From the IMG/VR virus record IMGVR_UViG_2563366928_000007: 12,483 nt of DNA. One strand, given 5' to 3'. Under the pieces are notes generated by a model that saw only the letters and a program-made list of their open reading frames with translations, did not search any database and was not told the origin of the DNA. A program made the position numbers and the translations under genes. This DNA is from a virus (lineage: Duplodnaviria; Heunggongvirae; Uroviricota; Caudoviricetes). Below, piece after piece: positions 2,184-12,483 of this stretch (the first letter of the stretch is position 1; each line of letters opens with the position of its first letter).

Positions 2184-2881
2184 TGCAGGACATACAACAG
2201 GAAACGCTGAATGAATGCATTCGTGCGGAGCAGTCGGCCAGCGTGGTGCTCTGGGAAATCGACCTGACCGAGGTAGGCGGGGATCGCTACTTTTTCTGTA
2301 ATGAGCAGAACGAAAAAGGTGAGTCTGTCACCTGGCAGAGTCGGCAGTATCAGGCCTATCCCATTCAGGGGAGTGGATTTGAGATGAACGGCAAGGGCAG
2401 TGCTGCCCGTCCGACACTGACGGTCTCTAACCTGCACGGCATGATCACCGGGATGGCGGAAGATCTGCAGAGTCTGGTCGGCGGAACGGTGGTCCGGCGT
2501 AAGGTTTACGCCCGCTTTCTGGATGCGGTGAACTTCGTCAACGGAAACAGCGAAGCCGATCCGGAGCAGGAGGTGATCAGCCGCTGGCGCATCGAGCAGT
2601 GCAGCGAACTGAGCGCGGTCAGTGCCTCTTTTGTACTGTCCACGCCGACTGAAACGGATGGCGCTGTTTTTCCGGGACGTATCATGCTGGCCAACACCTG
2701 CACCTGGACCTATCGCGGCGATGAGTGCGGTTATAGCGGTCCGGCGGTCGCGGATGAATATGACCAGCCGACGTCCGATATCACGAAGGATAAATGCAGC
2801 AAATGCCTGAGTGGCTGTAAGTTTCGCAATAATGTCGGCAACTTTGGCAGCTTCCTTTCCATTAACAAACTTTCGCAGTAA
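2183..2881 (+). CDS. L: Minor tail protein L (lambda gpL-like)
   Basis: 232-aa ORF, the same length as lambda gpL. Its start overlaps the M stop (TGATG). The C-terminal Cys cluster (CSKCLSGCKF) is consistent with the Fe-S-binding gpL family. Conserved gene order. Confidence 0.9.
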   Translation: MQDIQQETLNECIRAEQSASVVLWEIDLTEVGGDRYFFCNEQNEKGESVTWQSRQYQAYPIQGSGFEMNGKGSAARPTLTVSNLHGMITGMAEDLQSLVGGTVVRRKVYARFLDAVNFVNGNSEADPEQEVISRWRIEQCSELSAVSASFVLSTPTETDGAVFPGRIMLANTCTWTYRGDECGYSGPAVADEYDQPTSDITKDKCSKCLSGCKFRNNVGNFGSFLSINKLSQ

Positions 2882-2886
2882 ATCCC

Positions 2887-3630
2887 ATGACAGAGACAGA
2901 ATCAGCGATTCTGGCGCACGCCCGGCGATGTGCGCCAGCGGAGTCGTGCGGCTTCGTGGTGAGAACGCCGGAGGAGGAAAGATATTTTCCCTGCGTGAAT
3001 ATCTCCGGTGAGCCGGAGGAGTATTTCCGGATGTCGCCGGAGGACTGGCTGAGTGCAGAAATGCAGGGAGAGATTGTGGCGCTGGTCCACAGCCACCCCG
3101 GTGGTCTGCCCTGGCTGAGTGAGGCCGACCGGCGGCTGCAGGTACAGAGTGATTTGCCGTGGTGGCTGGTCTGCCGGGGGGCGATTCATAAATTCCGCTG
3201 TGTGCCGCATCTCACCGGGCGGCGCTTTGAGCACGGGGTAACGGACTGTTACACGCTGTTCCGGGACGCTTACCATCTGGCGGGAATTGAGATGCCGGAT
3301 TTTCATCGCGGGGATGACTGGTGGCGTAACGGTCAGAATCTCTATCTGGATAATCTGGAGGCCACAGGGCTGTATCAGGTGCCGTTGTCAGCGGCGCAGC
3401 CGGGCGATGTGCTGCTGTGCTGTTTTGGTTCATCGGTGCCGAATCATGCCGCCATTTACTGTGGTGACAGCGAGCTGCTGCACCATATTCCTGAACAACT
3501 GAGCAAACGAGAGAGGTACACCGACAAATGGCAGCGACGCACACACTCCCTCTGGCGTCACCGGGCATGGCACGCATCTGCCTTTACGGGGATTTACAAC
3601 GATTTGGCCGCCGCATCGACCTTCGAGTGA
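2887..3630 (+). CDS. K: Tail assembly protein K (lambda gpK-like) with N-terminal JAB/MPN (JAMM) domain and C-terminal NlpC/P60 domain
   Basis: 247-aa ORF. JAMM motif H-S-H-x7-S-x2-D (VHSHPGGLPWLSEAD); NlpC/P60-type Cys (VTDCYTLF) and His (VPNHAAIY). The 3' end overlaps I by 103 nt, as in lambda. The classical lambda annotation corresponds to the internal ATG at 3031 (199 aa). Confidence 0.85.
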   Translation: MTETESAILAHARRCAPAESCGFVVRTPEEERYFPCVNISGEPEEYFRMSPEDWLSAEMQGEIVALVHSHPGGLPWLSEADRRLQVQSDLPWWLVCRGAIHKFRCVPHLTGRRFEHGVTDCYTLFRDAYHLAGIEMPDFHRGDDWWRNGQNLYLDNLEATGLYQVPLSAAQPGDVLLCCFGSSVPNHAAIYCGDSELLHHIPEQLSKRERYTDKWQRRTHSLWRHRAWHASAFTGIYNDLAAASTFE

Positions 3631-4169
3631 AAACGGGGTCCGAAGCCATCCGGGCGCTGGCCATGCAGATCCCGGCATTTCGTCAGAAACTGAGCGACGG
3701 CTGGTACCAGGTACGCATTGCCGGGCGTGATGCAGGTGAAACCGAATTGTCTGCCCGTCTTAATGAGCCGCTGGAAAATGGTGCCGTGATCCATATCGTG
3801 CCGCGTCTGGCAGGAGCCAAAAGTGGCGGTGTGTTTCAGGCTGTGCTGGGGGCGGCTGTTATGGCGGTTGCTATATGGATGCCGGGGGTAGGAATTATGG
3901 CGAGTAATCTGCTGTTTTCTCTCGGTGCCAGTATGACGCTTGGCGGTGTTGCACAGATGCTGGCCCCTAAACCCAAAACCCCCCGCACACAGACAACGGA
4001 TAACGGCAAACAGAACACCTATTTTTCTTCACTGGATAACATGGTTGCCCAGGGCAATGTTCTGCCGGTTCTGTACGGTGAAATGCGCGTGGGGTCACGC
4101 GTGGTTTCTCAGGAGATCAGCACGGCAGACGAAGGGGATGGTGGTCAGGTTGTGGTGATTGGTCGCTGA
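3528..4169 (+). CDS. I: Tail assembly protein I (lambda gpI-like)
   Basis: 213-aa ORF beginning MAATHTLPLASPGMARICLYGDLQRFGRRIDL… and ending …VVSQEISTADEGDGGQVVVIGR, matching lambda gpI termini from memory. Its start lies inside the 3' end of K in another frame. Confidence 0.9.
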   Translation: MAATHTLPLASPGMARICLYGDLQRFGRRIDLRVKTGSEAIRALAMQIPAFRQKLSDGWYQVRIAGRDAGETELSARLNEPLENGAVIHIVPRLAGAKSGGVFQAVLGAAVMAVAIWMPGVGIMASNLLFSLGASMTLGGVAQMLAPKPKTPRTQTTDNGKQNTYFSSLDNMVAQGNVLPVLYGEMRVGSRVVSQEISTADEGDGGQVVVIGR

Positions 4170-4187
4170 TGCAAAATGTTTTATGTG

Positions 4188-4215
4188 AAACCGCCTCCGG
4201 GCGGTTTTATCGTTT
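4188..4215 (+). other. I-J intergenic hairpin (AAACCGCC-TCCG-GGCGGTTT) followed by a T-rich tract (TTTTATCGTTT); possible weak terminator or attenuator
   Basis: 8-bp perfect inverted repeat with a 4-nt loop read directly from the sequence. The U-tract is interrupted, so the terminator call is weak. Confidence 0.35.
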
Positions 4216-4229
4216 ATGGAGCATGACGA

Positions 4230-7200
4230 ATGGGTAAAGGCAGCAGTAAGGGGCATACCCCGCGCGAAGCGAAGGACAACCTGAAGTCCACGCAGCTGCT
4301 GAGTGTGATCGATGCCATCAGCGAAGGGCCGGTTGAAGGTCCGGTGGATGGATTAAAAAGCGTGCTGCTGAACAGTACGCCGGTGCTGGACAGTGAGGGG
4401 AATACCAATATATCCGGCGTCACGGTGGTGTTCCGGGCCGGTGAGCAGGAGCAGACACCGCCGGAGGGATTTGAATCCTCCGGCTCCGAGACGGTGCTGG
4501 GTACGGAAGTGAAGTACGACACGCCGATTACCCGGACCATCACGTCGGCAAACATCGACCGTCTGCGCTTTACCTTCGGTGTGCAGGCACTGGTGGAAAC
4601 CACCTCAAAGGGGGACCGGAATCCGTCGGAAGTCCGCCTGCTGGTTCAGATACAGCGTAATGGTGGCTGGGTGACGGAAAAAGACATCACCATTAAAGGC
4701 AAAACCACCTCACAGTATCTAGCATCGGTGGTGGTGGGTGACCTGCCGCCGCGCCCGTTCAATATCCGGATGCGCAGGATGACGCCGGACAGCACCACAG
4801 ACCAGCTGCAGAACAAAACGCTCTGGTCGTCATACACCGAAATCATCGATGTGAAACAGTGCTACCCGAACACGGCACTGGTCGGCGTACAGGTGGATTC
4901 GGAGCAGTTCGGCAGCCAGCAGGTGAGCCGTAATTATCATCTGCGCGGGCGTATTCTGCAGGTGCCGTCGAACTATAACCCGCAGACTCGGCAATACAGC
5001 GGTATCTGGGACGGAACGTTTAAGCCAGCATACAGCAATAACATGGCCTGGTGTCTGTGGGATATGCTGACCCATCCACGCTACGGCATGGGGAAACGTC
5101 TTGGTGCGGCGGATGTGGACAAATGGGCGCTGTATGTCATCGGCCAGTACTGCGACCAGTCAGTGCCGGACGGCTTTGGCGGCACGGAGCCGCGCATCAC
5201 CTGTAATGCGTACCTGACCACACAGCGCAAGGCGTGGGATGTGCTCAGTGATTTCTGCTCGGCGATGCGCTGTATGCCGGTATGGAACGGGCAGACGCTG
5301 ACGTTCGTGCAGGACCGACCGTCGGATAAGGTGTGGACCTATAACCGCAGTAATGTGGTGATGCCGGATGATGGCGCGCCGTTCCGCTACAGCTTCAGCG
5401 CCCTGAAGGACCGCCATAATGCCGTTGAGGTGAACTGGATTGACCCGGACAACGGCTGGGAGACGGCGACAGAGCTTGTTGAAGATACGCAGGCCATTGC
5501 CCGTTACGGTCGTAATGTCACGAAGATGGATGCCTTTGGCTGTACCAGCCGGGGGCAGGCACACCGCGCCGGGCTGTGGCTGATTAAAACGGAACTGCTG
5601 GAGACGCAGACCGTGGATTTCAGCGTGGGTGCTGAAGGGCTTCGCCATGTACCGGGCGATGTCATTGAAATCTGCGATGATGACTATGCCGGTATCAGCA
5701 CCGGTGGTCGCGTGCTGGCGGTGAACAGCCAGACCCGGACGCTGACGCTCGACCGTGAAATCACGCTGCCATCCTCCGGTACCACGCTGATAAGCCTGGT
5801 TGACGGAAGTGGTAATCCGGTCAGCGTGGAGGTTCAGTCCGTCACCGACGGACTTAAGGTGAAAGTGAACCGGGTTCCTGACGGCGTTGCAGAATACAGT
5901 GTGTGGGGGCTGAAGCTGCCGACGCTGCGCCAGCGCCTGTTCCGCTGTGTGAGTATCCGTGAGAACGATGACGGCACGTATGCCATCACTGCCGTGCAGC
6001 ATGTACCGGAAAAAGAAGCCATCGTGGATAACGGGGCGCACTTTGACGGCGACCAGAGCGGCACGGTGAATGGTGTCACGCCGCCAGCGGTGCAGCACCT
6101 GACCGCCGAAGTCACCGCAGACAGCGGGGAATATCAGGTGCTGGCGCGCTGGGACACGCCGAAGGTGGTGAAGGGCGTGAGCTTCCTGCTTCGCCTGACC
6201 GTGGCAGCGGATGACGGCAGTGAGCGGCTGGTCAGCACGGCCCGGACGACGGAAACCACATACCGCTTCACGCAACTGGCGCTGGGGCGGTACACGCTGA
6301 CAGTCCGGGCGGTAAATGCGTGGGGACAGCAGGGCGATCCGGCGTCGGTATCGTTCCGGATTGCCGCACCGGTAGCACCGTCGCGGATTGAGCTGACGCC
6401 GGGGTATTTTCAGATAACCGCCACGCCGCATCTTGCCGTTTATGACCCGACGGTACAGTTTGAGTTCTGGTTCTCGGAAAAGCGGATTACCGATATCAGG
6501 CAGGTTGAAACCACAGCGCGCTACCTTGGCACGGGGCTGTACTGGATAGCCGCCAGTATCAATATCAAACCGGGCCATGATTATTATTTTTACGTTCGCA
6601 GTGTGAACACCGTTGGCAAATCGGCATTCGTGGAGGCTGTTGGTCAGCCGAGTGATGATGCATCCGGCTATCTGGATTTTTTCAAAGGCGAGATAGGGAA
6701 AACCCATCTGGCTCAGGAGCTGTGGACGCAGATTGATAACGGTCAGCTTGCGCCTGACCTGGCTGAAATCAGGACGTCCATTACGGATGTCAGCAATGAA
6801 ATCACGCAGACCGTCAATAAGAAACTGGAAGACCAGAGTGCAGCGATCCAGCAGATACAGAAGGTTCAGGTTGATACAAATAATAACCTGAACAGCATGT
6901 GGGCAGTGAAGCTGCAGCAGATGCAGGACGGACGCCTTTATATTGCGGGTATCGGTGCCGGTATTGAGAACACCCCCGACGGCATGCAGAGTCAGGTGCT
7001 GCTGGCGGCAGACAGGATTGCGATGATTAATCCTGCGAATGGCAACACAAAGCCGATGTTTGTTGGTCAGGGCGATCAGATATTCATGAATGAAGTGTTC
7101 CTGAAATATCTGACGGCTCCCACCATTACCAGCGGCGGTAATCCTCCGGCATTTTCCCTGACACCGGACGGGCGACTGACGGCGAAAAATGCCGATATCA

Positions 7201-7709
7201 GCGGTAGCGTGAATGCGAACTCCGGGACGCTCAACAACGTCACGATTAACGAGAACTGTCGGGTTCTGGGAAAACTGTCCGCGAACCAGATTGAAGGCGA
7301 TCTCGTTAAAACAGTGGGCAAAGCTTTCCCCCGGGACTCCCGTGCACCGGAGCGGTGGCCATCAGGGACCATTACCGTCAGGGTTTATGACGATCAGCCG
7401 TTTGACCGGCAAATTGTTATTCCAGCGGTGGCTTTCAGCGGTGCCAGACATGAACGGGAGAATAGCGATACTTATTCGTCATGCCGCCTGATAGTGAAGA
7501 AAAACGGGGCTGAAATTTATAACCGAACGGCTCTGGATAATACTCTGATTTACACGGGTGTTATTGATATGCCTGCAGGCAGTGGCGTAATGACACTGGA
7601 GTTTTCTGTATCAGCATGGTGGGTAAATGGCTGGTATCCCACAGCAAGTATCAGCGATTTGCTGGTTGTTGTGATGAAGAAAGCCACTGCAGGCATCACG
7701 ATTAGCTGA
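4230..7709 (+). CDS. J: Central tail fibre / host specificity protein J (tip attachment protein)
   Basis: 1159-aa ORF with GGAG Shine-Dalgarno 8 nt upstream. The N-terminus [34 protein letters not shown]… and most of the first ~1000 aa match lambda gpJ from memory. The C-terminal ~150-200 aa diverge from lambda in sequence but retain the …[23 protein letters not shown] ending. Confidence 0.95.
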
Positions 7710-7727
7710 ATTTTATAACCCAGATAC

Positions 7728-7755
7728 GGGCGCCAGAAATGGCGCCTTTTTTATT
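7728..7755 (+). terminator. Rho-independent terminator downstream of J
   Basis: GGCGCC (7729-7734), loop AGAAAT, GGCGCC (7741-7746), followed by TTTTTTATT. Confidence 0.7.
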
Positions 7756-7776
7756 GCAGAAAAGCGAGAGGTAATT

Positions 7777-8376
7777 ATGCGTAAATTATGTGCTGTTATT
7801 CTGTCCACAGTAGTCTGGCTGGTCGCCGCTGGTACGCCAGCGAGCGCAGCAGAGCATCAGTCCACACTAAGCGCCGGGTATCTTCAGACCCATACTGATA
7901 TGCCCGGCAACGATGACCTGAAGGGCATTAACGTGAAATACCGTTATGAATTTACGGACACGCTGGGGCTGGTGACGTCATTCAGTTATGCCAATGCCAA
8001 AGATGAGCAAAAAACGCATTACAGCGATACCCGCTGGCATGAAGATTCAGTGCGTAACCGCTGGTTCAGCATGATGGCGGGGCCGTCTGTACGCGTGAAT
8101 GAATGGTTCAGTGCTTATGCGATGGCAGGTGTGGCTTACAGCCGTGTTTCAACTTTTTCCGGGGATTATCTCCGCGTAACTGACAGCAAGGGGAAAACGC
8201 ACGATGTGCTGACTGGAAGTGATGACGGTCGCCACAGCAACACGTCTCTGGCGTGGGGGGCTGGCGTGCAGTTTAACCCGACCGAATCCGTGGCCATTGA
8301 TATTGCTTATGAAGGCTCCGGCAGTGGTGACTGGCGCACTGACGGTTTCATCGTGGGTGTCGGTTATAAATTCTGA
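7777..8376 (+). CDS. lom: Outer membrane beta-barrel protein Lom (Ail/Lom/PagC/OmpX family)
   Basis: 199-aa ORF with GAGAGG Shine-Dalgarno. N-terminal signal peptide (MRKLCAVILSTVVWLVAAGTPASAAE), alternating amphipathic beta-strand pattern, and C-terminal …GVGYKF ending in Phe as in outer-membrane barrels. Position between J and stf is as in lambda. Confidence 0.9.
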   Translation: MRKLCAVILSTVVWLVAAGTPASAAEHQSTLSAGYLQTHTDMPGNDDLKGINVKYRYEFTDTLGLVTSFSYANAKDEQKTHYSDTRWHEDSVRNRWFSMMAGPSVRVNEWFSAYAMAGVAYSRVSTFSGDYLRVTDSKGKTHDVLTGSDDGRHSNTSLAWGAGVQFNPTESVAIDIAYEGSGSGDWRTDGFIVGVGYKF

Positions 8377-8430: not shown

Positions 8431-8440
8431 TGGAGTGGAT

Positions 8441-10816
8441 ATGGCAGCAGTAAAAATCTCAGGTGTGCTGAAAGATTGTGCGGGAAAACCAATACAGAAC
8501 TGCACTATTCAACTGAAGGCAAAGCGTAACAGCACCACGGTACTGGTGAACACGGTGGCCTCTGAAAATCCGGATGAAGCCGGGCGTTACAGCATGGATG
8601 TTGAGCATGGCCAGTACAGCGTCATCCTGCTGGTTGAAGGTTTTCCGCCTTCACATGCCGGGACCATTACCGTCTATGAAGGCTCCAGACCAGGTACGCT
8701 GAATGATTTTCTCGGTGCCATGACGGAAGATGATGTCATGCCGGAGGCATTGCGTCGTTTTGAGGCAATGGTGGAAGAAGTGGCACGCAACGCCGAAGCC
8801 GCCTCTCAGAGCGCAGCGGCGGCAAAGAAATCCGAAACTGCAGCGGCATCATCGAAGAACGCGGCGAAAACCTCAGAAACGAATGCAGCTAATAGTGCAC
8901 AGGCGGCAGCGACCTCAAAGACTGCATCGGCAAACTCCGCGACAGCAGCCAAAAAATCAGAAACCAACGCGAAAAACAGTGAGACAGCCGCAAAGACGAG
9001 CGAAACCAACGCAAAGTCCAGCCAGACGGCAGCGAAAACCAGCGAAACGAATGCTAAAGCCAGTGAAACTGCAGCAAAAAACAGCCAGGCTTCAGCAGCC
9101 GAAAGCGAGAGCGCGGCAGCCGGTTCTGCGACTTCAGCAGCTGGATCAGCAACTGCTGCGGCTAACAGCCAGAAAGCTGCGAAGACGAGTGAAACTAACG
9201 CAAAGTCCAGCCAGACGGCAGCGAAGACCAGCGAAACGAATGCCAAAGCCAGTGAAACTGCGGCGAAAAGCAGTCAGGATGCAGCGGCCCAAAGCGAGAG
9301 TGCCGCAGCCAGTTCTGCAAGCGCGGCGGCTGCTTCTGCCACTGCATCAGCTAACAGTCAAAAAGCAGCAAAAACCAGTGAAACCAACGCAAAGGTGAGC
9401 GAAACAGCGGCTGCGAACTCAGCGAAAGCATCGGCAGCAAGCCAGACGGCAGCTAAAGCAAGCGAAGATGCAGCCAGAGAGTACGCAAGCCAGGCTGCGG
9501 AGCCGTATAAATATGTCTTACAGCCGCTGCCTGATGTGTGGATACCATTTAACGATTCGCTGGATATGATTACGGGCTTTTCGCCATCATATAAAAAAAT
9601 TGTTATTGGTGACGATGAAATAACGATGCCTGGCGACAAGATTGTTAAGTTTAAACGTGCATCGAAAGCAACCTATATTAACAAATCTGGTGTGCTGACA
9701 GAGGCTGCCATTGACGAGCCACGATTTGAACGTGATGGCCTGCTTATTGAGGGGCAAAGAACAAACTACATGCTCAATTCGGAAAGCCCTGCCAGTTGGG
9801 GGCGATCGTCAAATATGGATGTGCCCGAAACAGGGACGGATAATTTTGGTTTTACCTATGGAAAGTTTGTCTGCAACGATTCTCTGATTGGGCAAACCTC
9901 AGCCATTAATATGGCATCAATTGCTGCAACAAAGTCAGTTGATGTCTCAGGCGATAATAAACACGTGACAACCTCATGTCGTTTTAAAACAGAACTGCAG
10001 GTAAGGTTGCGTATCCGGTTTGATAAATATGACGGTAGCGCAACAACTTTTCTTGGTGATGCGTATATTGATACACAAACGCTTGAAATTAATATGACAG
10101 GCGGTGCTGCCTCAAGGATTACAGCGAGAGTCAGAAAGGACGAAGCTACCGGATGGATTTTTGCAGAGGCAACAATTCAGGCAATTGATGGGGAGTTAAA
10201 AATAGGCTCTCAGATACAGTATTCTCCTAAGCAGAGCGGGGCAACCGTATCTGGTGACTATATTTATCTGGCCACCCCACAAGTAGAAGATGGGCCTTGT
10301 GTATCATCTTTTATTATATCAGGAGCGACGGCGGCGACCCGCGCAAGCGATATAGTTACAGTTCCAATTAAGAATAATCTTTATAATCTTCCTTTTACGG
10401 TTCTTTGTGAGGTACATAAGAACTGGTATAAAACGCCAAATGCAGCGCCACGTGTTTTTGATACCGGCGGTCATCAAACCGGAGCGGCTATTATTCTTGG
10501 CTTCGGTCGTTCAACAGATTACGACGGATTTCCTTATTGCGATATTGGAGGAGCTAACAGACGGGTAAACGAAAACGCATCGCTTGAAAAAATGGTTATG
10601 GGGATGCGTGTAAAGTCAGAGCAGTCTACGTGCTCAGTAAGTAACGGGCATATATCCAGCGAAACAAAAACCACATGGTCCTGTATTCAGAACACCGCAA
10701 TTATCCGTATTGGAGGCCAGACTACAGCCGGGTTACGTCATTTATTTGGTCATGTCAGGAATTTCAGAATATGGCACAAGGCATTGACTGATGCTCAGGT
10801 GGGGGAGTCAATCTAA
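8441..10816 (+). CDS. stf: Side tail fibre protein Stf, mosaic: lambda-like N-terminal domain, repeat shaft, divergent C-terminal receptor-binding region with LamG-like terminal motif
   Basis: Long ORF (track start GTG 8435; ATG 8441 is preferred, with GGAG 5 nt upstream, giving MAAVKISGVLKD… like lambda Stf MAVKISGVLKDGTGKPVQNCTIQLKA…). An S/A/T/K/E/N-rich repeat region follows. The C-terminal ~430 aa are unrelated to lambda Stf and end …GLRHLFGHVRNFRIWHKALTDAQVGESI. Confidence 0.9.
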   Translation: MAAVKISGVLKDCAGKPIQNCTIQLKAKRNSTTVLVNTVASENPDEAGRYSMDVEHGQYSVILLVEGFPPSHAGTITVYEGSRPGTLNDFLGAMTEDDVMPEALRRFEAMVEEVARNAEAASQSAAAAKKSETAAASSKNAAKTSETNAANSAQAAATSKTASANSATAAKKSETNAKNSETAAKTSETNAKSSQTAAKTSETNAKASETAAKNSQASAAESESAAAGSATSAAGSATAAANSQKAAKTSETNAKSSQTAAKTSETNAKASETAAKSSQDAAAQSESAAASSASAAAASATASANSQKAAKTSETNAKVSETAAANSAKASAASQTAAKASEDAAREYASQAAEPYKYVLQPLPDVWIPFNDSLDMITGFSPSYKKIVIGDDEITMPGDKIVKFKRASKATYINKSGVLTEAAIDEPRFERDGLLIEGQRTNYMLNSESPASWGRSSNMDVPETGTDNFGFTYGKFVCNDSLIGQTSAINMASIAATKSVDVSGDNKHVTTSCRFKTELQVRLRIRFDKYDGSATTFLGDAYIDTQTLEINMTGGAASRITARVRKDEATGWIFAEATIQAIDGELKIGSQIQYSPKQSGATVSGDYIYLATPQVEDGPCVSSFIISGATAATRASDIVTVPIKNNLYNLPFTVLCEVHKNWYKTPNAAPRVFDTGGHQTGAAIILGFGRSTDYDGFPYCDIGGANRRVNENASLEKMVMGMRVKSEQSTCSVSNGHISSETKTTWSCIQNTAIIRIGGQTTAGLRHLFGHVRNFRIWHKALTDAQVGESI
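8815..9480 (+). repeat. Low-complexity coding repeat region inside stf, including a ~189-bp (63-aa) tandem direct duplication (copies starting near 9011 and 9200, third partial copy after ~9389)
   Basis: The motif gcaaagtccagccagacggcagcgaa… occurs at ~9011 and again at ~9200, with collinear similarity over ~190 bp. The protein shows reiterated AAKTSETNAK(S/A)S(Q/E)TAAK units. Confidence 0.8.
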
Positions 10817-11097
10817 TGAAAGATTTAACACTCAAATTTGCCGACAGGGCCGACTTTTCGGCCTTTATGGAGAGTATTGGCTATTATGATGACGAGTCGA
10901 TGCAGGATGATATTCTTATTGACGTGATAGGTAACGTGTACAAAGAAACCGGAGAACTGACTGAAGATGGCGAACCGGTATGTGTTAAGGAAGACGGATA
11001 TTTTGTAAACGTGCGCATCATTAATGATTCGCAAATATCGTCATTATTCGATGAATACGTGGTTGCTGTTGAGCATCAACTTCGTGGCTGGATGTGA
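10816..11097 (+). CDS. Hypothetical small acidic protein (93 aa), translationally coupled to stf
   Basis: ATG overlaps the stf stop (TAATG). Codon usage is coherent with neighbouring genes. Strongly acidic (many D/E). No family recognised by eye. Confidence 0.6.
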   Translation: MKDLTLKFADRADFSAFMESIGYYDDESMQDDILIDVIGNVYKETGELTEDGEPVCVKEDGYFVNVRIINDSQISSLFDEYVVAVEHQLRGWM

Positions 11098-11106
11098 GGA
11101 AGAAAA

Positions 11107-12147
11107 ATGGCTACATCGACAGTAATTCCTGATGACATCAAAACGCTAAAATCCGACGTTAGCAAATTAAAAAACGATCAAGGAAGCTACGCAACAAAAT
11201 TATATGTAGACAGCAAAGATGAAATCGTTGGTGACTGGTCTGCTTCATGGTATCAGCAGGTATTGCCAACTAGCGGAGCTATATTTGGGAGAAAACTCCG
11301 CTCAACTCACAGGACGGCAGGTGTTGAGGATGCGTATTGCGAACTATACCTCAAAAAATGGATAGACAGTCCAGGTAACGCAATGGCGCGCCTTAACCTG
11401 AACGATAACGGGACAAACATTTGCTGGGACTTTACCAACCTTTATGGCGGTACGATGATTTTTCCCGGTGACAGCGGATACCTCAAAATGGGTAACTGCC
11501 TTATGTCATACAGCAAGCGTGGAAGTAACGCGCTTATTAAATTTGATTACACCGACACATTACAGATCAAATATGCCAATCATGGGTCAACCATGACATT
11601 AAACACACAGGGAACCGCTTATGCTGGTGTTACTGCTCAATTGTGGGGCAACTCCAGCCGTCCTGTTGTTTATGAAGTCGGTGTTGATGGTGGCGCTTAT
11701 ATGTTCTATGCGCAGAAAAATACCGATAACACCTATATGTTAAGCGTTAATGGTGCATGTCATGCCACCGCATTTAACCAGCATTCCGACCGGGATCTGA
11801 AAGACAACATTCAGGTGATCGATAATGCAACCGACCGCATCCGTAAAATGAACGGCTATACATACACGCTTAAAGAAAACGGTATGCCCTATGCTGGTGT
11901 CATTGCACAGGAAGCTCTGGAAGCAATCCCAGAAGCTGTAGGTTCCGCAATGAAATATCAGGACGGTGCAAGCGGATCGGAAGGTGAAGAAGGTGAACGT
12001 TATTACACAGTAGATTATTCTGGTGTTACTGGCTTGCTTGTTCAGGTAGCCAGAGAGTCAGACGACAGAATAACAGCACTGGAAGAAGAAAATGCAGAAT
12101 TAAAACAAAGATTATCTGCAATTGAGGCGACGCTTGCGTCTAAATAA
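11107..12147 (+). CDS. Tail fibre/spike-like protein with C-terminal intramolecular chaperone autocleavage domain (peptidase S74 / endosialidase-chaperone type)
   Basis: 346-aa ORF with strong GAGGAAG Shine-Dalgarno. The C-terminal ~120 aa carry the S74-type signature: HSDRDLKDNIQ (Ser-x4-Lys autocleavage motif), …YAGVIAQEALEAIPEAVG…, …YYTVDYSGVTGLLVQVARE…, and a terminal coiled coil ITALEEENAELKQRLSAIEATL. The N-terminal ~225 aa are beta-rich and fibre-like. Confidence 0.85.
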   Translation: MATSTVIPDDIKTLKSDVSKLKNDQGSYATKLYVDSKDEIVGDWSASWYQQVLPTSGAIFGRKLRSTHRTAGVEDAYCELYLKKWIDSPGNAMARLNLNDNGTNICWDFTNLYGGTMIFPGDSGYLKMGNCLMSYSKRGSNALIKFDYTDTLQIKYANHGSTMTLNTQGTAYAGVTAQLWGNSSRPVVYEVGVDGGAYMFYAQKNTDNTYMLSVNGACHATAFNQHSDRDLKDNIQVIDNATDRIRKMNGYTYTLKENGMPYAGVIAQEALEAIPEAVGSAMKYQDGASGSEGEEGERYYTVDYSGVTGLLVQVARESDDRITALEEENAELKQRLSAIEATLASK

Positions 12148-12183: not shown

Positions 12184-12483
12184 ATGAAAATGGATATAAC
12201 ACCTTTCCTTCATGCACTTTGTGCTGTGGCTGCGCAGGTACTGGTTGGTCTTTTTACCGGAAACTGGGCTTACGGGGCGATAGCCGGTTGTACGTTCTTC
12301 ATTGCTCGTGAACATACCCAGGCAGAATATCGCTGGATTGAAATGTTCGGGCATGGCAAGCGTATGAATATGCCGTGGTGGGGTGGTTTTGATCCGCGAG
12401 TGTGGGATGTGGCAAGCCTGATGGATTTTTCTGTGCCGGTGGTGGCTTGTCTGCTGGTCTGGCTGTTGGTTAATCGTGGGTGA
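12184..12483 (+). CDS. Small predicted inner-membrane protein (~97-99 aa, two hydrophobic segments), function unknown; moron candidate
   Basis: ORF complete within the window (TGA 12481-12483). Track start is TTG 12175; more likely starts are ATG 12184 or ATG 12190 (AGGA 5 nt upstream of 12190). Hydrophobic stretches LHALCAVAAQVLVGLFTGNWAYGAIAGCTFFIA and VASLMDFSVPVVACLLVWLLV flank a charged loop. Confidence 0.6.
   Translation: MKMDITPFLHALCAVAAQVLVGLFTGNWAYGAIAGCTFFIAREHTQAEYRWIEMFGHGKRMNMPWWGGFDPRVWDVASLMDFSVPVVACLLVWLLVNRG

Follow-up and report, generated by a model that had tools for sequence, protein, structure and literature searches.

A phage's side and lateral tail fibres determine which kinds of O-antigen or capsule it can overcome. 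This raises the question of what is mounted at the end of the side tail fibre encoded by virus record IMGVR_UViG_2563366928_000007, and what that end might do. The window, meaning the whole stretch of 12,483 nucleotides that was analysed, is the tail-tip end of a lambda-like Escherichia coli prophage, beginning with the 3' part of the tape-measure gene. Its side tail fibre gene, stf, is a mosaic in which a lambda-type front half is joined to an unrelated end module with a predicted two-domain, lectin-like fold. The same module occurs on the fibres of several other phage groups, accompanied by a small gene (orf93 in the window) and, at most loci, by a gene for a second fibre (346 amino acids in the window). 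We consider it reasonably probable that this end module is a glycan-binding adhesin with a socket for an optional second fibre. Stf residues are counted from the GTG at 8435 that opens the longest stf reading frame (793 amino acids), while alignment with lambda Stf (MAVKISG...) makes the ATG at 8441 the likely start.

The front of the fibre is clearly of lambda type. Lambda orf-401, the N-terminal half of lambda Stf, aligns with residues 5-331 at 59% identity (E = 4e-79), the PF08400 N-terminus is present, and the gene lies after J and lom, as it does in lambda. The likeness to lambda extends no further than about residue 340. The remaining features of a lambda-type fibre, namely a lambda/T4 gp37-type tip and a downstream Tfa (Caudo_TAP) gene, are not present. 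The rear 430 or so residues gave no significant match to orf-314, the C-terminal half of lambda Stf, or to anything else in lambda; orf93 has no similarity to lambda Tfa, and there was no Pfam hit to Caudo_TAP among the window proteins scanned. A first-pass annotation of this DNA, made from the sequence alone, had already described a lambda-like, GC-rich N-terminus and a tip unrelated to that of lambda, and both descriptions hold.

Composition and homology place the junction at nearly the same point. The guanine-plus-cytosine (GC) content is 0.543 in stf 8435-9520 and 0.443 in 9521-10816 (chi-square p = 1.3e-6), with a maximum-likelihood changepoint at 9506 and the 200 best positions all within 9341-9603; a sliding GC profile agrees with a drop inside stf. 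The non-lambda part begins at about residue 363 (QPLPDVWIPFNDSLDM, nucleotide 9521), in megablast, phages that have just the module in common with this gene begin to match at query nucleotide 1087 (window 9521), and P2-like and rV5-like fibres align to Stf only from residue 356-365 onwards. The AT-rich part had been put at 9480-10816 in the first-pass annotation. Its shift after the shaft and approximate start are borne out, but the low-GC block does not end with the gene, continuing past the stf stop codon through orf93 (GC 0.418) and the 346-residue fibre gene (GC 0.443) to 12147.

Such a shift could also be a by-product of amino-acid composition, with an Ala/Ser/Thr-rich shaft giving way to a globular domain and no foreign origin involved. 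The shaft is indeed compositionally extreme (AT skew 0.6, tandem repeats), which raises GC at codon positions 1 and 2. However, third-position GC falls too, from 0.47-0.53 before the junction to 0.38 after it, the low GC persists over two further genes, and near-identical modules sit on unrelated fibre N-termini, which is independent evidence of exchange. This explanation is already largely refuted and can be given practically no weight. The mosaicism of stf and its shift in composition are confirmed; mosaicism of this sort is the rule for tail fibres of lambdoid phages, and the stf of the window is an ordinary case.

The module itself is common and already annotated, not rare. It was found by tblastn in 219 phage records and is present in 1,579 of 5,426 complete E. 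coli genomes (~29%), with 80% or more of its length covered in 508 of these, while RefSeq names its proteins 'phage head spike fiber domain-containing protein' or 'prophage tail fiber N-terminal domain-containing protein'. A P2-type fibre N-terminus carries it at 93% amino-acid identity, and fibres of T5-, T1-, rV5-, Dhillonvirus- and SU10-like phages at 35-76%. Horizontal exchange between phage groups, as originally suggested for the tip, is therefore supported by these homologies, although the exchanged unit is larger than a tip, namely a cassette with orf93 and, here, the 346-residue fibre. The module or the small gene is also carried by records named as Campylobacter or Listeria phages (MG065692, MG065676, MG065654, MG065635 and OR848352), where the module is 88% and 44% identical and the small gene 38-40%; the host labels of these records look doubtful.

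What kind of protein the module is emerges from family and fold comparisons. Laminin_G_3 (PF13385) is the sole Pfam match of the C-terminal part (profile positions 98-150 of 151, E = 0.006); the match lies below its threshold and contains the terminal motif GHVRNFRIWHKALTDAQV (residues 772-789, nucleotides 10748-10801), at the end of the second domain. Thirty-five of 59 diverse homologues match the same family at E <= 0.01, the best at 1.9e-11. Residues 437-637 match NF048003 GTA_spike_fiber well above its cut-off (50.5 bits against 36, E = 3.3e-13, profile positions 1-181 of 182), and a pairwise search found a sole relative of solved structure, Rcc01080, the head spike fibre of the Rhodobacter capsulatus gene transfer agent (RcGTA; E = 1e-7). 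The diversity used here came from a HMMER scan of 1.84 billion cluster representatives, which returned 2,034 relatives, many over all 430 residues at 30-40% identity; two of three word-index protein searches gave almost only near-identical E. coli alleles. A module profile searched against PDB sequences matched, over domain 1, Rcc01080 (2.8e-37), the distal tail protein gp17 of Sf11 (1.5e-15) and the baseplate proteins Pa193 gp46 and E217 gp45 (~1e-14). Its last 155 positions matched an S-layer-associated domain, the lectin-like HCN of botulinum neurotoxin D and C-reactive protein (4e-4 to 7e-3).

Structure prediction points in the same direction. From 59 diverse sequences, AlphaFold2 gave a confident all-beta model (predicted local distance difference test (pLDDT) 90.9, predicted template modelling score (pTM) 0.88), whereas from 42 close homologues (49-100% identity) the core of domain 1 alone was confident and mean pLDDT was 53; that core was thus modelled confidently in both runs. 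The predicted jelly-roll beta-sandwich superposes on known concanavalin-A-like lectin and glucanase members, including AbnA domain 4, CBM40, the clostridial neurotoxin HCN, pentraxins and laminin G; identity to the module is only 8-16%. No sequence-level signal of an internal duplication between domains 1 and 2 was found with hhalign. The module is accordingly predicted to consist of two lectin-like beta-sandwich domains. The first-pass annotation had read the extreme C-terminus as the last strand of a concanavalin-A-like or LamG-type domain, and at family and fold level this reading is supported, since the homologues and the predicted fold back the sub-threshold Pfam match. Of the checks proposed alongside it, structure prediction was clear and the search with family models was divided, NF048003 exceeding its cut-off and Laminin_G_3 falling short of its own in Stf itself.

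The same fold includes glucanases, and the module might instead be an enzyme, a concanavalin-A-like glucanase-type depolymerase acting on O-antigen or capsule. Nevertheless, no glycoside hydrolase (GH) or lyase family in Pfam or NCBIfam was matched by Stf or the 59 homologues, and the GH16 ExDxxE motif was not seen on reading the sequence, a visual check only. The enzymatic reading was rejected on these grounds, and its probability seems very small.

The pattern of variation suggests where specificity may reside. When segments were compared over eight phage loci, the N-terminal segment (module residues 15-105) was 56-97% identical between loci, and the linker SSFI.T..TRA.D and the terminal strands were likewise conserved. 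In contrast, the core of domain 1 (module residues 106-265; window 9794-10273) was only 17-45% identical in alleles whose flanks were 56-97% identical. Domain 2 sorts into discrete allelic classes. IrisVonRoten and SLUR29 are 92% identical over domain 2 but 25% over the domain 1 core, indicating that the two domains recombine independently. A variable core on a conserved scaffold is the signature expected of a specificity-determining surface, and domain 1, rather than the LamG-like end, is likely the main determinant. A LamG-like tip had been put forward as the specificity module. There is a predicted sandwich at the end, but it is the second of two domains, and the hypervariable one is the first, which matches NF048003.

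Glycan binding by the module, for example of O-antigen, is plausible because of its fold, its hypervariability and the capsule binding of its RcGTA homologue. It also agrees with the part that lateral fibres generally play in these phage groups, that of getting past O-antigen. Rcc01080 (GhsB, NF048003) is homologous to the N-terminal segment and domain 1 of the module, and it is through the head spike fibre that RcGTA attaches to capsular polysaccharide (PMC7296036, PMC10218006). The two proteins differ in setting: Rcc01080 is a single subunit on a capsid vertex, held by an N-terminal Leu-Gly repeat, so that it is head-borne, and it is without the LamG-like domain 2. Pa193 gp46, E217 gp45 and the C-terminal appendage of Sf11 gp17 are lectin-like as well, but sit on baseplate or distal-tail proteins and not at the end of a fibre. 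Gifsy-1 Stf, which binds the lipopolysaccharide (LPS) core, was considered as a homologue of the module and rejected, being lambda-type throughout.

The module does not travel alone. The start codon of orf93 overlaps the stf stop codon (ATGA), and its product has no match in Pfam, NCBIfam or PDB sequences. By tblastn, an orf93 homologue is nevertheless present in 183 phage records, directly 3' of the module-bearing fibre gene, and at every enterobacterial phage or prophage locus inspected it follows that gene directly, often with overlapping stop and start codons. These loci comprise lambda-like phages (phage 21, Lambda_2E9), T5-like phages (IrisVonRoten, APCEc03, EC104), T1-like SLUR29, the Seuratvirus KurtStettler, the Dhillonvirus rolling, rV5-like EmilHeitz and a P2-like prophage (locus L009). 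Even a distant metagenomic phage has a small gene next to the module.

Most module loci also encode a second fibre, and these are of widely differing kinds: 303 amino acids and of Gp34_trimer type in the P2-like prophage, with a separate Caudo_TAP chaperone gene; 574-580 amino acids and T-shaped in the T5-like phages; 245 amino acids in SLUR29; and 510 amino acids in KurtStettler. In the window, the second fibre matches PF13884 Peptidase_S74 at residues 227-278 (nucleotides 11785-11940; 53.7 bits, cut-off 22) and reads S227-D-R-D-L-K232, with Lys five residues after Ser. This Ser-to-Lys spacing of five defines the dyad in endosialidase-type chaperones, and the C-terminus of the fibre is predicted to be a self-cleaving intramolecular chaperone. 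With a second fibre present, Stf may be neither the sole nor the most distal receptor binder.

Despite their differences, the second fibres begin alike. That of the window opens with MATSTVIPDDIKTLKSD (11107-11157), and at seven loci from five phage groups the second fibres open with M-[AV]-T-x-T-[VTI]-I-P-x-D-I-x-x-L-K, while the remainder of each protein differs. The motif is common to P2-like, T5-like, T1-like and Seuratvirus loci. Upstream of the second fibre, the module (alignment from residue 356) and the small protein are all that the window has in common with the P2-like locus, and the conserved partner of the motif should therefore be one of these two. It is tempting to extend this to a universal plug-and-socket joint, made of the N-terminal segment of the module, the protein of ~93 residues and the N-terminal peptide of the second fibre, by which enterobacterial sipho-, myo- and podoviruses would mount interchangeable distal fibres. 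In so general a form we regard the proposal as tentative, and somewhat more apt to fail than to hold. If it is true, each fibre carries two independently exchangeable specificities, one in the hypervariable domain 1 and one in the plugged-in fibre. KurtStettler bas22_0024 (L018 2789-4321; 510 amino acids) is annotated as a 'putative lateral tail fiber chaperone'. Its first residues are the second-fibre motif (MVTKTIIPTDITKLK), and a second fibre is the likelier identity.

Two loci show that the second fibre is optional. Neither phage 21 nor Lambda_2E9 has a second fibre, although both carry the module and the small gene; a gene for a putative 97-residue membrane protein comes next. The last open reading frame of the window is nearly identical to this gene, so that relative to those phages the 346-residue fibre gene looks like an insertion. 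The module can thus be the end of a fibre. The same loci lend themselves to another reading, in which the module is a terminal receptor-binding tip only, the 346-residue fibre is independent (attached to the Stf shaft or to some other site on the tail tip) and orf93 encodes a Tfa-like assembly chaperone for the module. Phage 21 and Lambda_2E9 keep the small gene although they have no second fibre, which is thus not its sole reason to exist; orf93 occupies the position of lambda tfa, overlapping the stf stop codon; and in phage DT57C the second fibre is mounted on a proximal fibre protein and not on a lectin tip. However, a conserved second-fibre motif needs a conserved partner, for which the shared module and small protein are the only candidates. 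Moreover, the small protein varies in step with the kind of second fibre and is without similarity to Tfa or Caudo_TAP, and the P2-like locus has its separate Caudo_TAP gene in addition. We regard this reading as unlikely, if worth keeping in sight.

It is also conceivable that the module serves solely as a structural knee or adaptor between a proximal and a distal fibre, which binds no receptor and leaves recognition to the 346-residue fibre. Module proteins do hold the proximal position in the multi-protein fibre loci of T5-like, SU10-like and P2-like phages, and the N-terminal segment and linker are strongly conserved. IrisVonRoten (Bas32, T5-like) has the same module (62.5% identity by tblastn), the small gene and a second fibre that opens with the shared N-terminal motif; this fibre is a T-shaped protein of 574 residues with two receptor-binding domains, in place of the 346-residue fibre of the window. 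According to the BASEL paper, it connects to a 'long proximal fiber', the receptor-binding domains being assigned to the distal T-shaped fibre (PMC11990801). Going by gene order, this proximal fibre would be the module-bearing bas32_0022, which the paper numbers Gp23, off by one. On the other hand, a core identity of 17-45% and the independent exchange of two domains are unexpected for a structural part, phage 21 and Lambda_2E9 have no distal fibre to be joined, and the fold neighbours are carbohydrate-binding modules and lectins, with one homologue that binds capsule. A role as adaptor alone appears quite improbable.

The reading preferred here, a glycan-binding adhesin with a socket, would work as follows. 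The lambda-type N-terminus would anchor a trimeric fibre at the tail tip, with the repeat shaft acting as a spacer. The end module would then reversibly bind a surface glycan (O-antigen, capsule or LPS core) as primary receptor, and its specificity would lie mainly in the hypervariable core of domain 1. The 346-residue fibre would cleave off its own chaperone at Ser227, and its N-terminal peptide probably fits a socket formed by the protein of ~93 residues and the conserved segments of the module. Hanging from the module or the small protein, the second fibre would add a second specificity and yield a branched or extended fibre, before J engages the terminal receptor last.

Several points weigh against this picture. 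The Laminin_G_3 match of Stf scores 17.1 bits, under the 27.6-bit gathering threshold, and covers only the last third of the profile, while the AlphaFold2 model is a monomer and contains neither a trimer arrangement nor a socket. Cryo-electron microscopy maps do not resolve those regions of the RcGTA head fibre and Sf11 gp17 that are homologous to the module; a solved structure of a homologous domain was considered as a guide and rejected, the former being resolved at residues 2-10 only and the latter at 3-165 only. No experiment on binding by the module, or on its structure, was found in the literature for any E. coli phage. The sequence of the small protein goes with the kind of second fibre present, not with the module allele (76% identity between IrisVonRoten and EC104), and it may therefore act for the second fibre instead of the module. 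Among distant carriers of the module, L011 is without the small gene and the second fibres of L013 are without the N-terminal motif. Finally, genetic analysis of a branched fibre exists for DT57C only, and there the proximal protein on which the second fibre is mounted belongs to another type.

The distant loci deserve brief description. In L013 (6587-9888), two paralogous fibres of ~550 residues follow the module and small gene; they have weak Laminin_G_3 matches and begin MKRRTT..., and the plug motif is therefore not universal. In an SU10-like metagenomic contig, the module occupies the place of the proximal fibre; two S74 fibres come after it, and the small gene is missing. SU10 gp12, a proximal long tail fibre characterised by cryo-electron microscopy, was tried as a positional model and rejected, as it is without the module.

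Comparison with characterised fibres shows both the kinship and the limits. Lambda (Ur-lambda) Stf has the same position after J and lom and a homologous attachment domain and shaft, but its C-terminal half is unrelated, and where lambda has Stf and Tfa the window has a predicted two-domain lectin-like tip, a small gene, a second fibre and no Tfa homologue. For LtfA and LtfB of the T5-like phage DT57C, there is genetic evidence of a branched fibre. LtfA ends in a Peptidase_S74 chaperone, whereas Stf has no Peptidase_S74 and ends in the lectin-like module. The window does have a downstream gene for a second fibre (11107-12147), which may attach to Stf, to judge by its conserved N-terminal motif and conserved gene order.

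The module is among the commonest fibre ends in E. coli prophages and is also found in several virulent coliphage groups. Even so, the literature search found no published experimental characterisation of it, nothing relevant on HannyBb-type phages by name or on Laminin_G_3 in tail fibres, and no paper describing the joint travel of the module, the small gene and the N-terminal peptide of the second fibre. What is added here is a confident assignment of a two-domain lectin-like fold, the location of the hypervariable core and a co-travelling cassette found across sipho-, myo- and podoviruses. The map of conserved and hypervariable segments gives boundaries for host-range engineering, either by swapping the domain 1 core or by fitting another second fibre. 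In addition, the small gene, everywhere annotated as hypothetical, gains a testable role.

Coordinates of the features discussed, in window positions, with the evidence for each
Feature	Position	Strand	Evidence or remark
J	4230-7709		
lom	7777-8376		
stf, side tail fibre gene	8441..10816	+	full-length match to phrog_1419; alignment with lambda Stf
Lambda-type N-terminal tail-attachment domain, residues 5-134	8447..8836	+	PF08400 phage_tail_N, E = 1e-65, 220 bits; lambda orf-401 alignment
Ala/Ser/Thr/Lys-rich repeat shaft (KTSETNAK-type)	8837..9520	+	tandem repeats; lambda shaft alignment
Mosaic junction	9506..9521	.	GC changepoint and start of the exchanged module (QPLPDVW...)
Conserved N-terminal module segment, Stf residues 363-453	9521..9793	+	near-invariant EPRFE..GLLIEGQRTN; lowest column entropy; pLDDT mostly >77
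Hypervariable core of domain 1, predicted beta-sandwich, Stf residues 454-613	9794..10273	+	within NF048003 match; 17-45% identical where the flanks of the alleles are 70-90% identical; likely specificity determinant
Conserved linker (SSFI.T..TRA.D) and domain 2, predicted LamG / pentraxin / concanavalin-A-like beta-sandwich, Stf residues 614-793	10274..10813	+	
orf93, small conserved partner gene	10816..11097	+	phrog_1361, E = 2e-46
Second tail fibre, 346 amino acids	11107..12147	+	PF13884 Peptidase_S74; phrog_4563
97-residue putative membrane protein	12190..12483	+	right-hand end of the cassette

The full gene order of the window is tape-measure (3' part), M, L, K, I, J, lom, stf, and the open reading frames of 93, 346 and 97 amino acids. 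The last of these (12190-12483) encodes a putative two-helix membrane protein, and its end coincides with the edge of the window. Many complete E. coli chromosomes contain 96% of the window at 99.5-99.9% identity, adjoining sitABCD, which in relatives of the window lies just past the 97-residue gene.

Close relatives of this stf differ mainly in the shaft. By megablast, the gene is 98-99% identical in nucleotides to stf of phages HannyBb, Tritos (which we take to be the E. coli LF82 prophage), 2G7b and PhiR63_1. Together with ~500 complete E. coli genomes, these are 98-100% identical over the gene or the module and have the same orf93 and 346-residue fibre downstream; their stf alleles differ only in shaft repeat number, and the gene is split by a frameshift in some genomes. 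The shaft is GC-rich with a strong skew of A over T (up to 0.62), and at 8941-9394 it contains tandem repeats with periods of 42 and 189 nucleotides (2.2 copies, 82% match). Relatives with a 100% identical module range from 728 to 793 amino acids with differing repeat numbers, indicating that repeat number changes fast. The minus-strand reading frames at 8806-9246 and 9358-9639, opposite stf, we take to be artefacts. In E. coli GN06156 (L016 11438-13813, 99.9% identical to the window), the annotation of stf consists of an N-terminal pseudogene fragment and a separate 678-residue 'phage head spike fiber domain-containing protein', an interruption that recalls the stf frameshift of laboratory lambda.

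Composition also changes elsewhere in the window. A second junction lies near 2150-2250, between the 3' part of the tape-measure gene with M (300-2200; GC 0.39-0.45, third-position GC 0.35-0.38) and L, K, I and most of J (2200-6450; GC 0.56-0.65, third-position GC 0.58-0.67), so that the tail region is mosaic on that side too. The 3' third of J is the receptor-binding part in lambda. Here, GC is 0.44-0.54 over this third (6450-7800), a drop that suggests that the tip of J may also be an exchanged segment.

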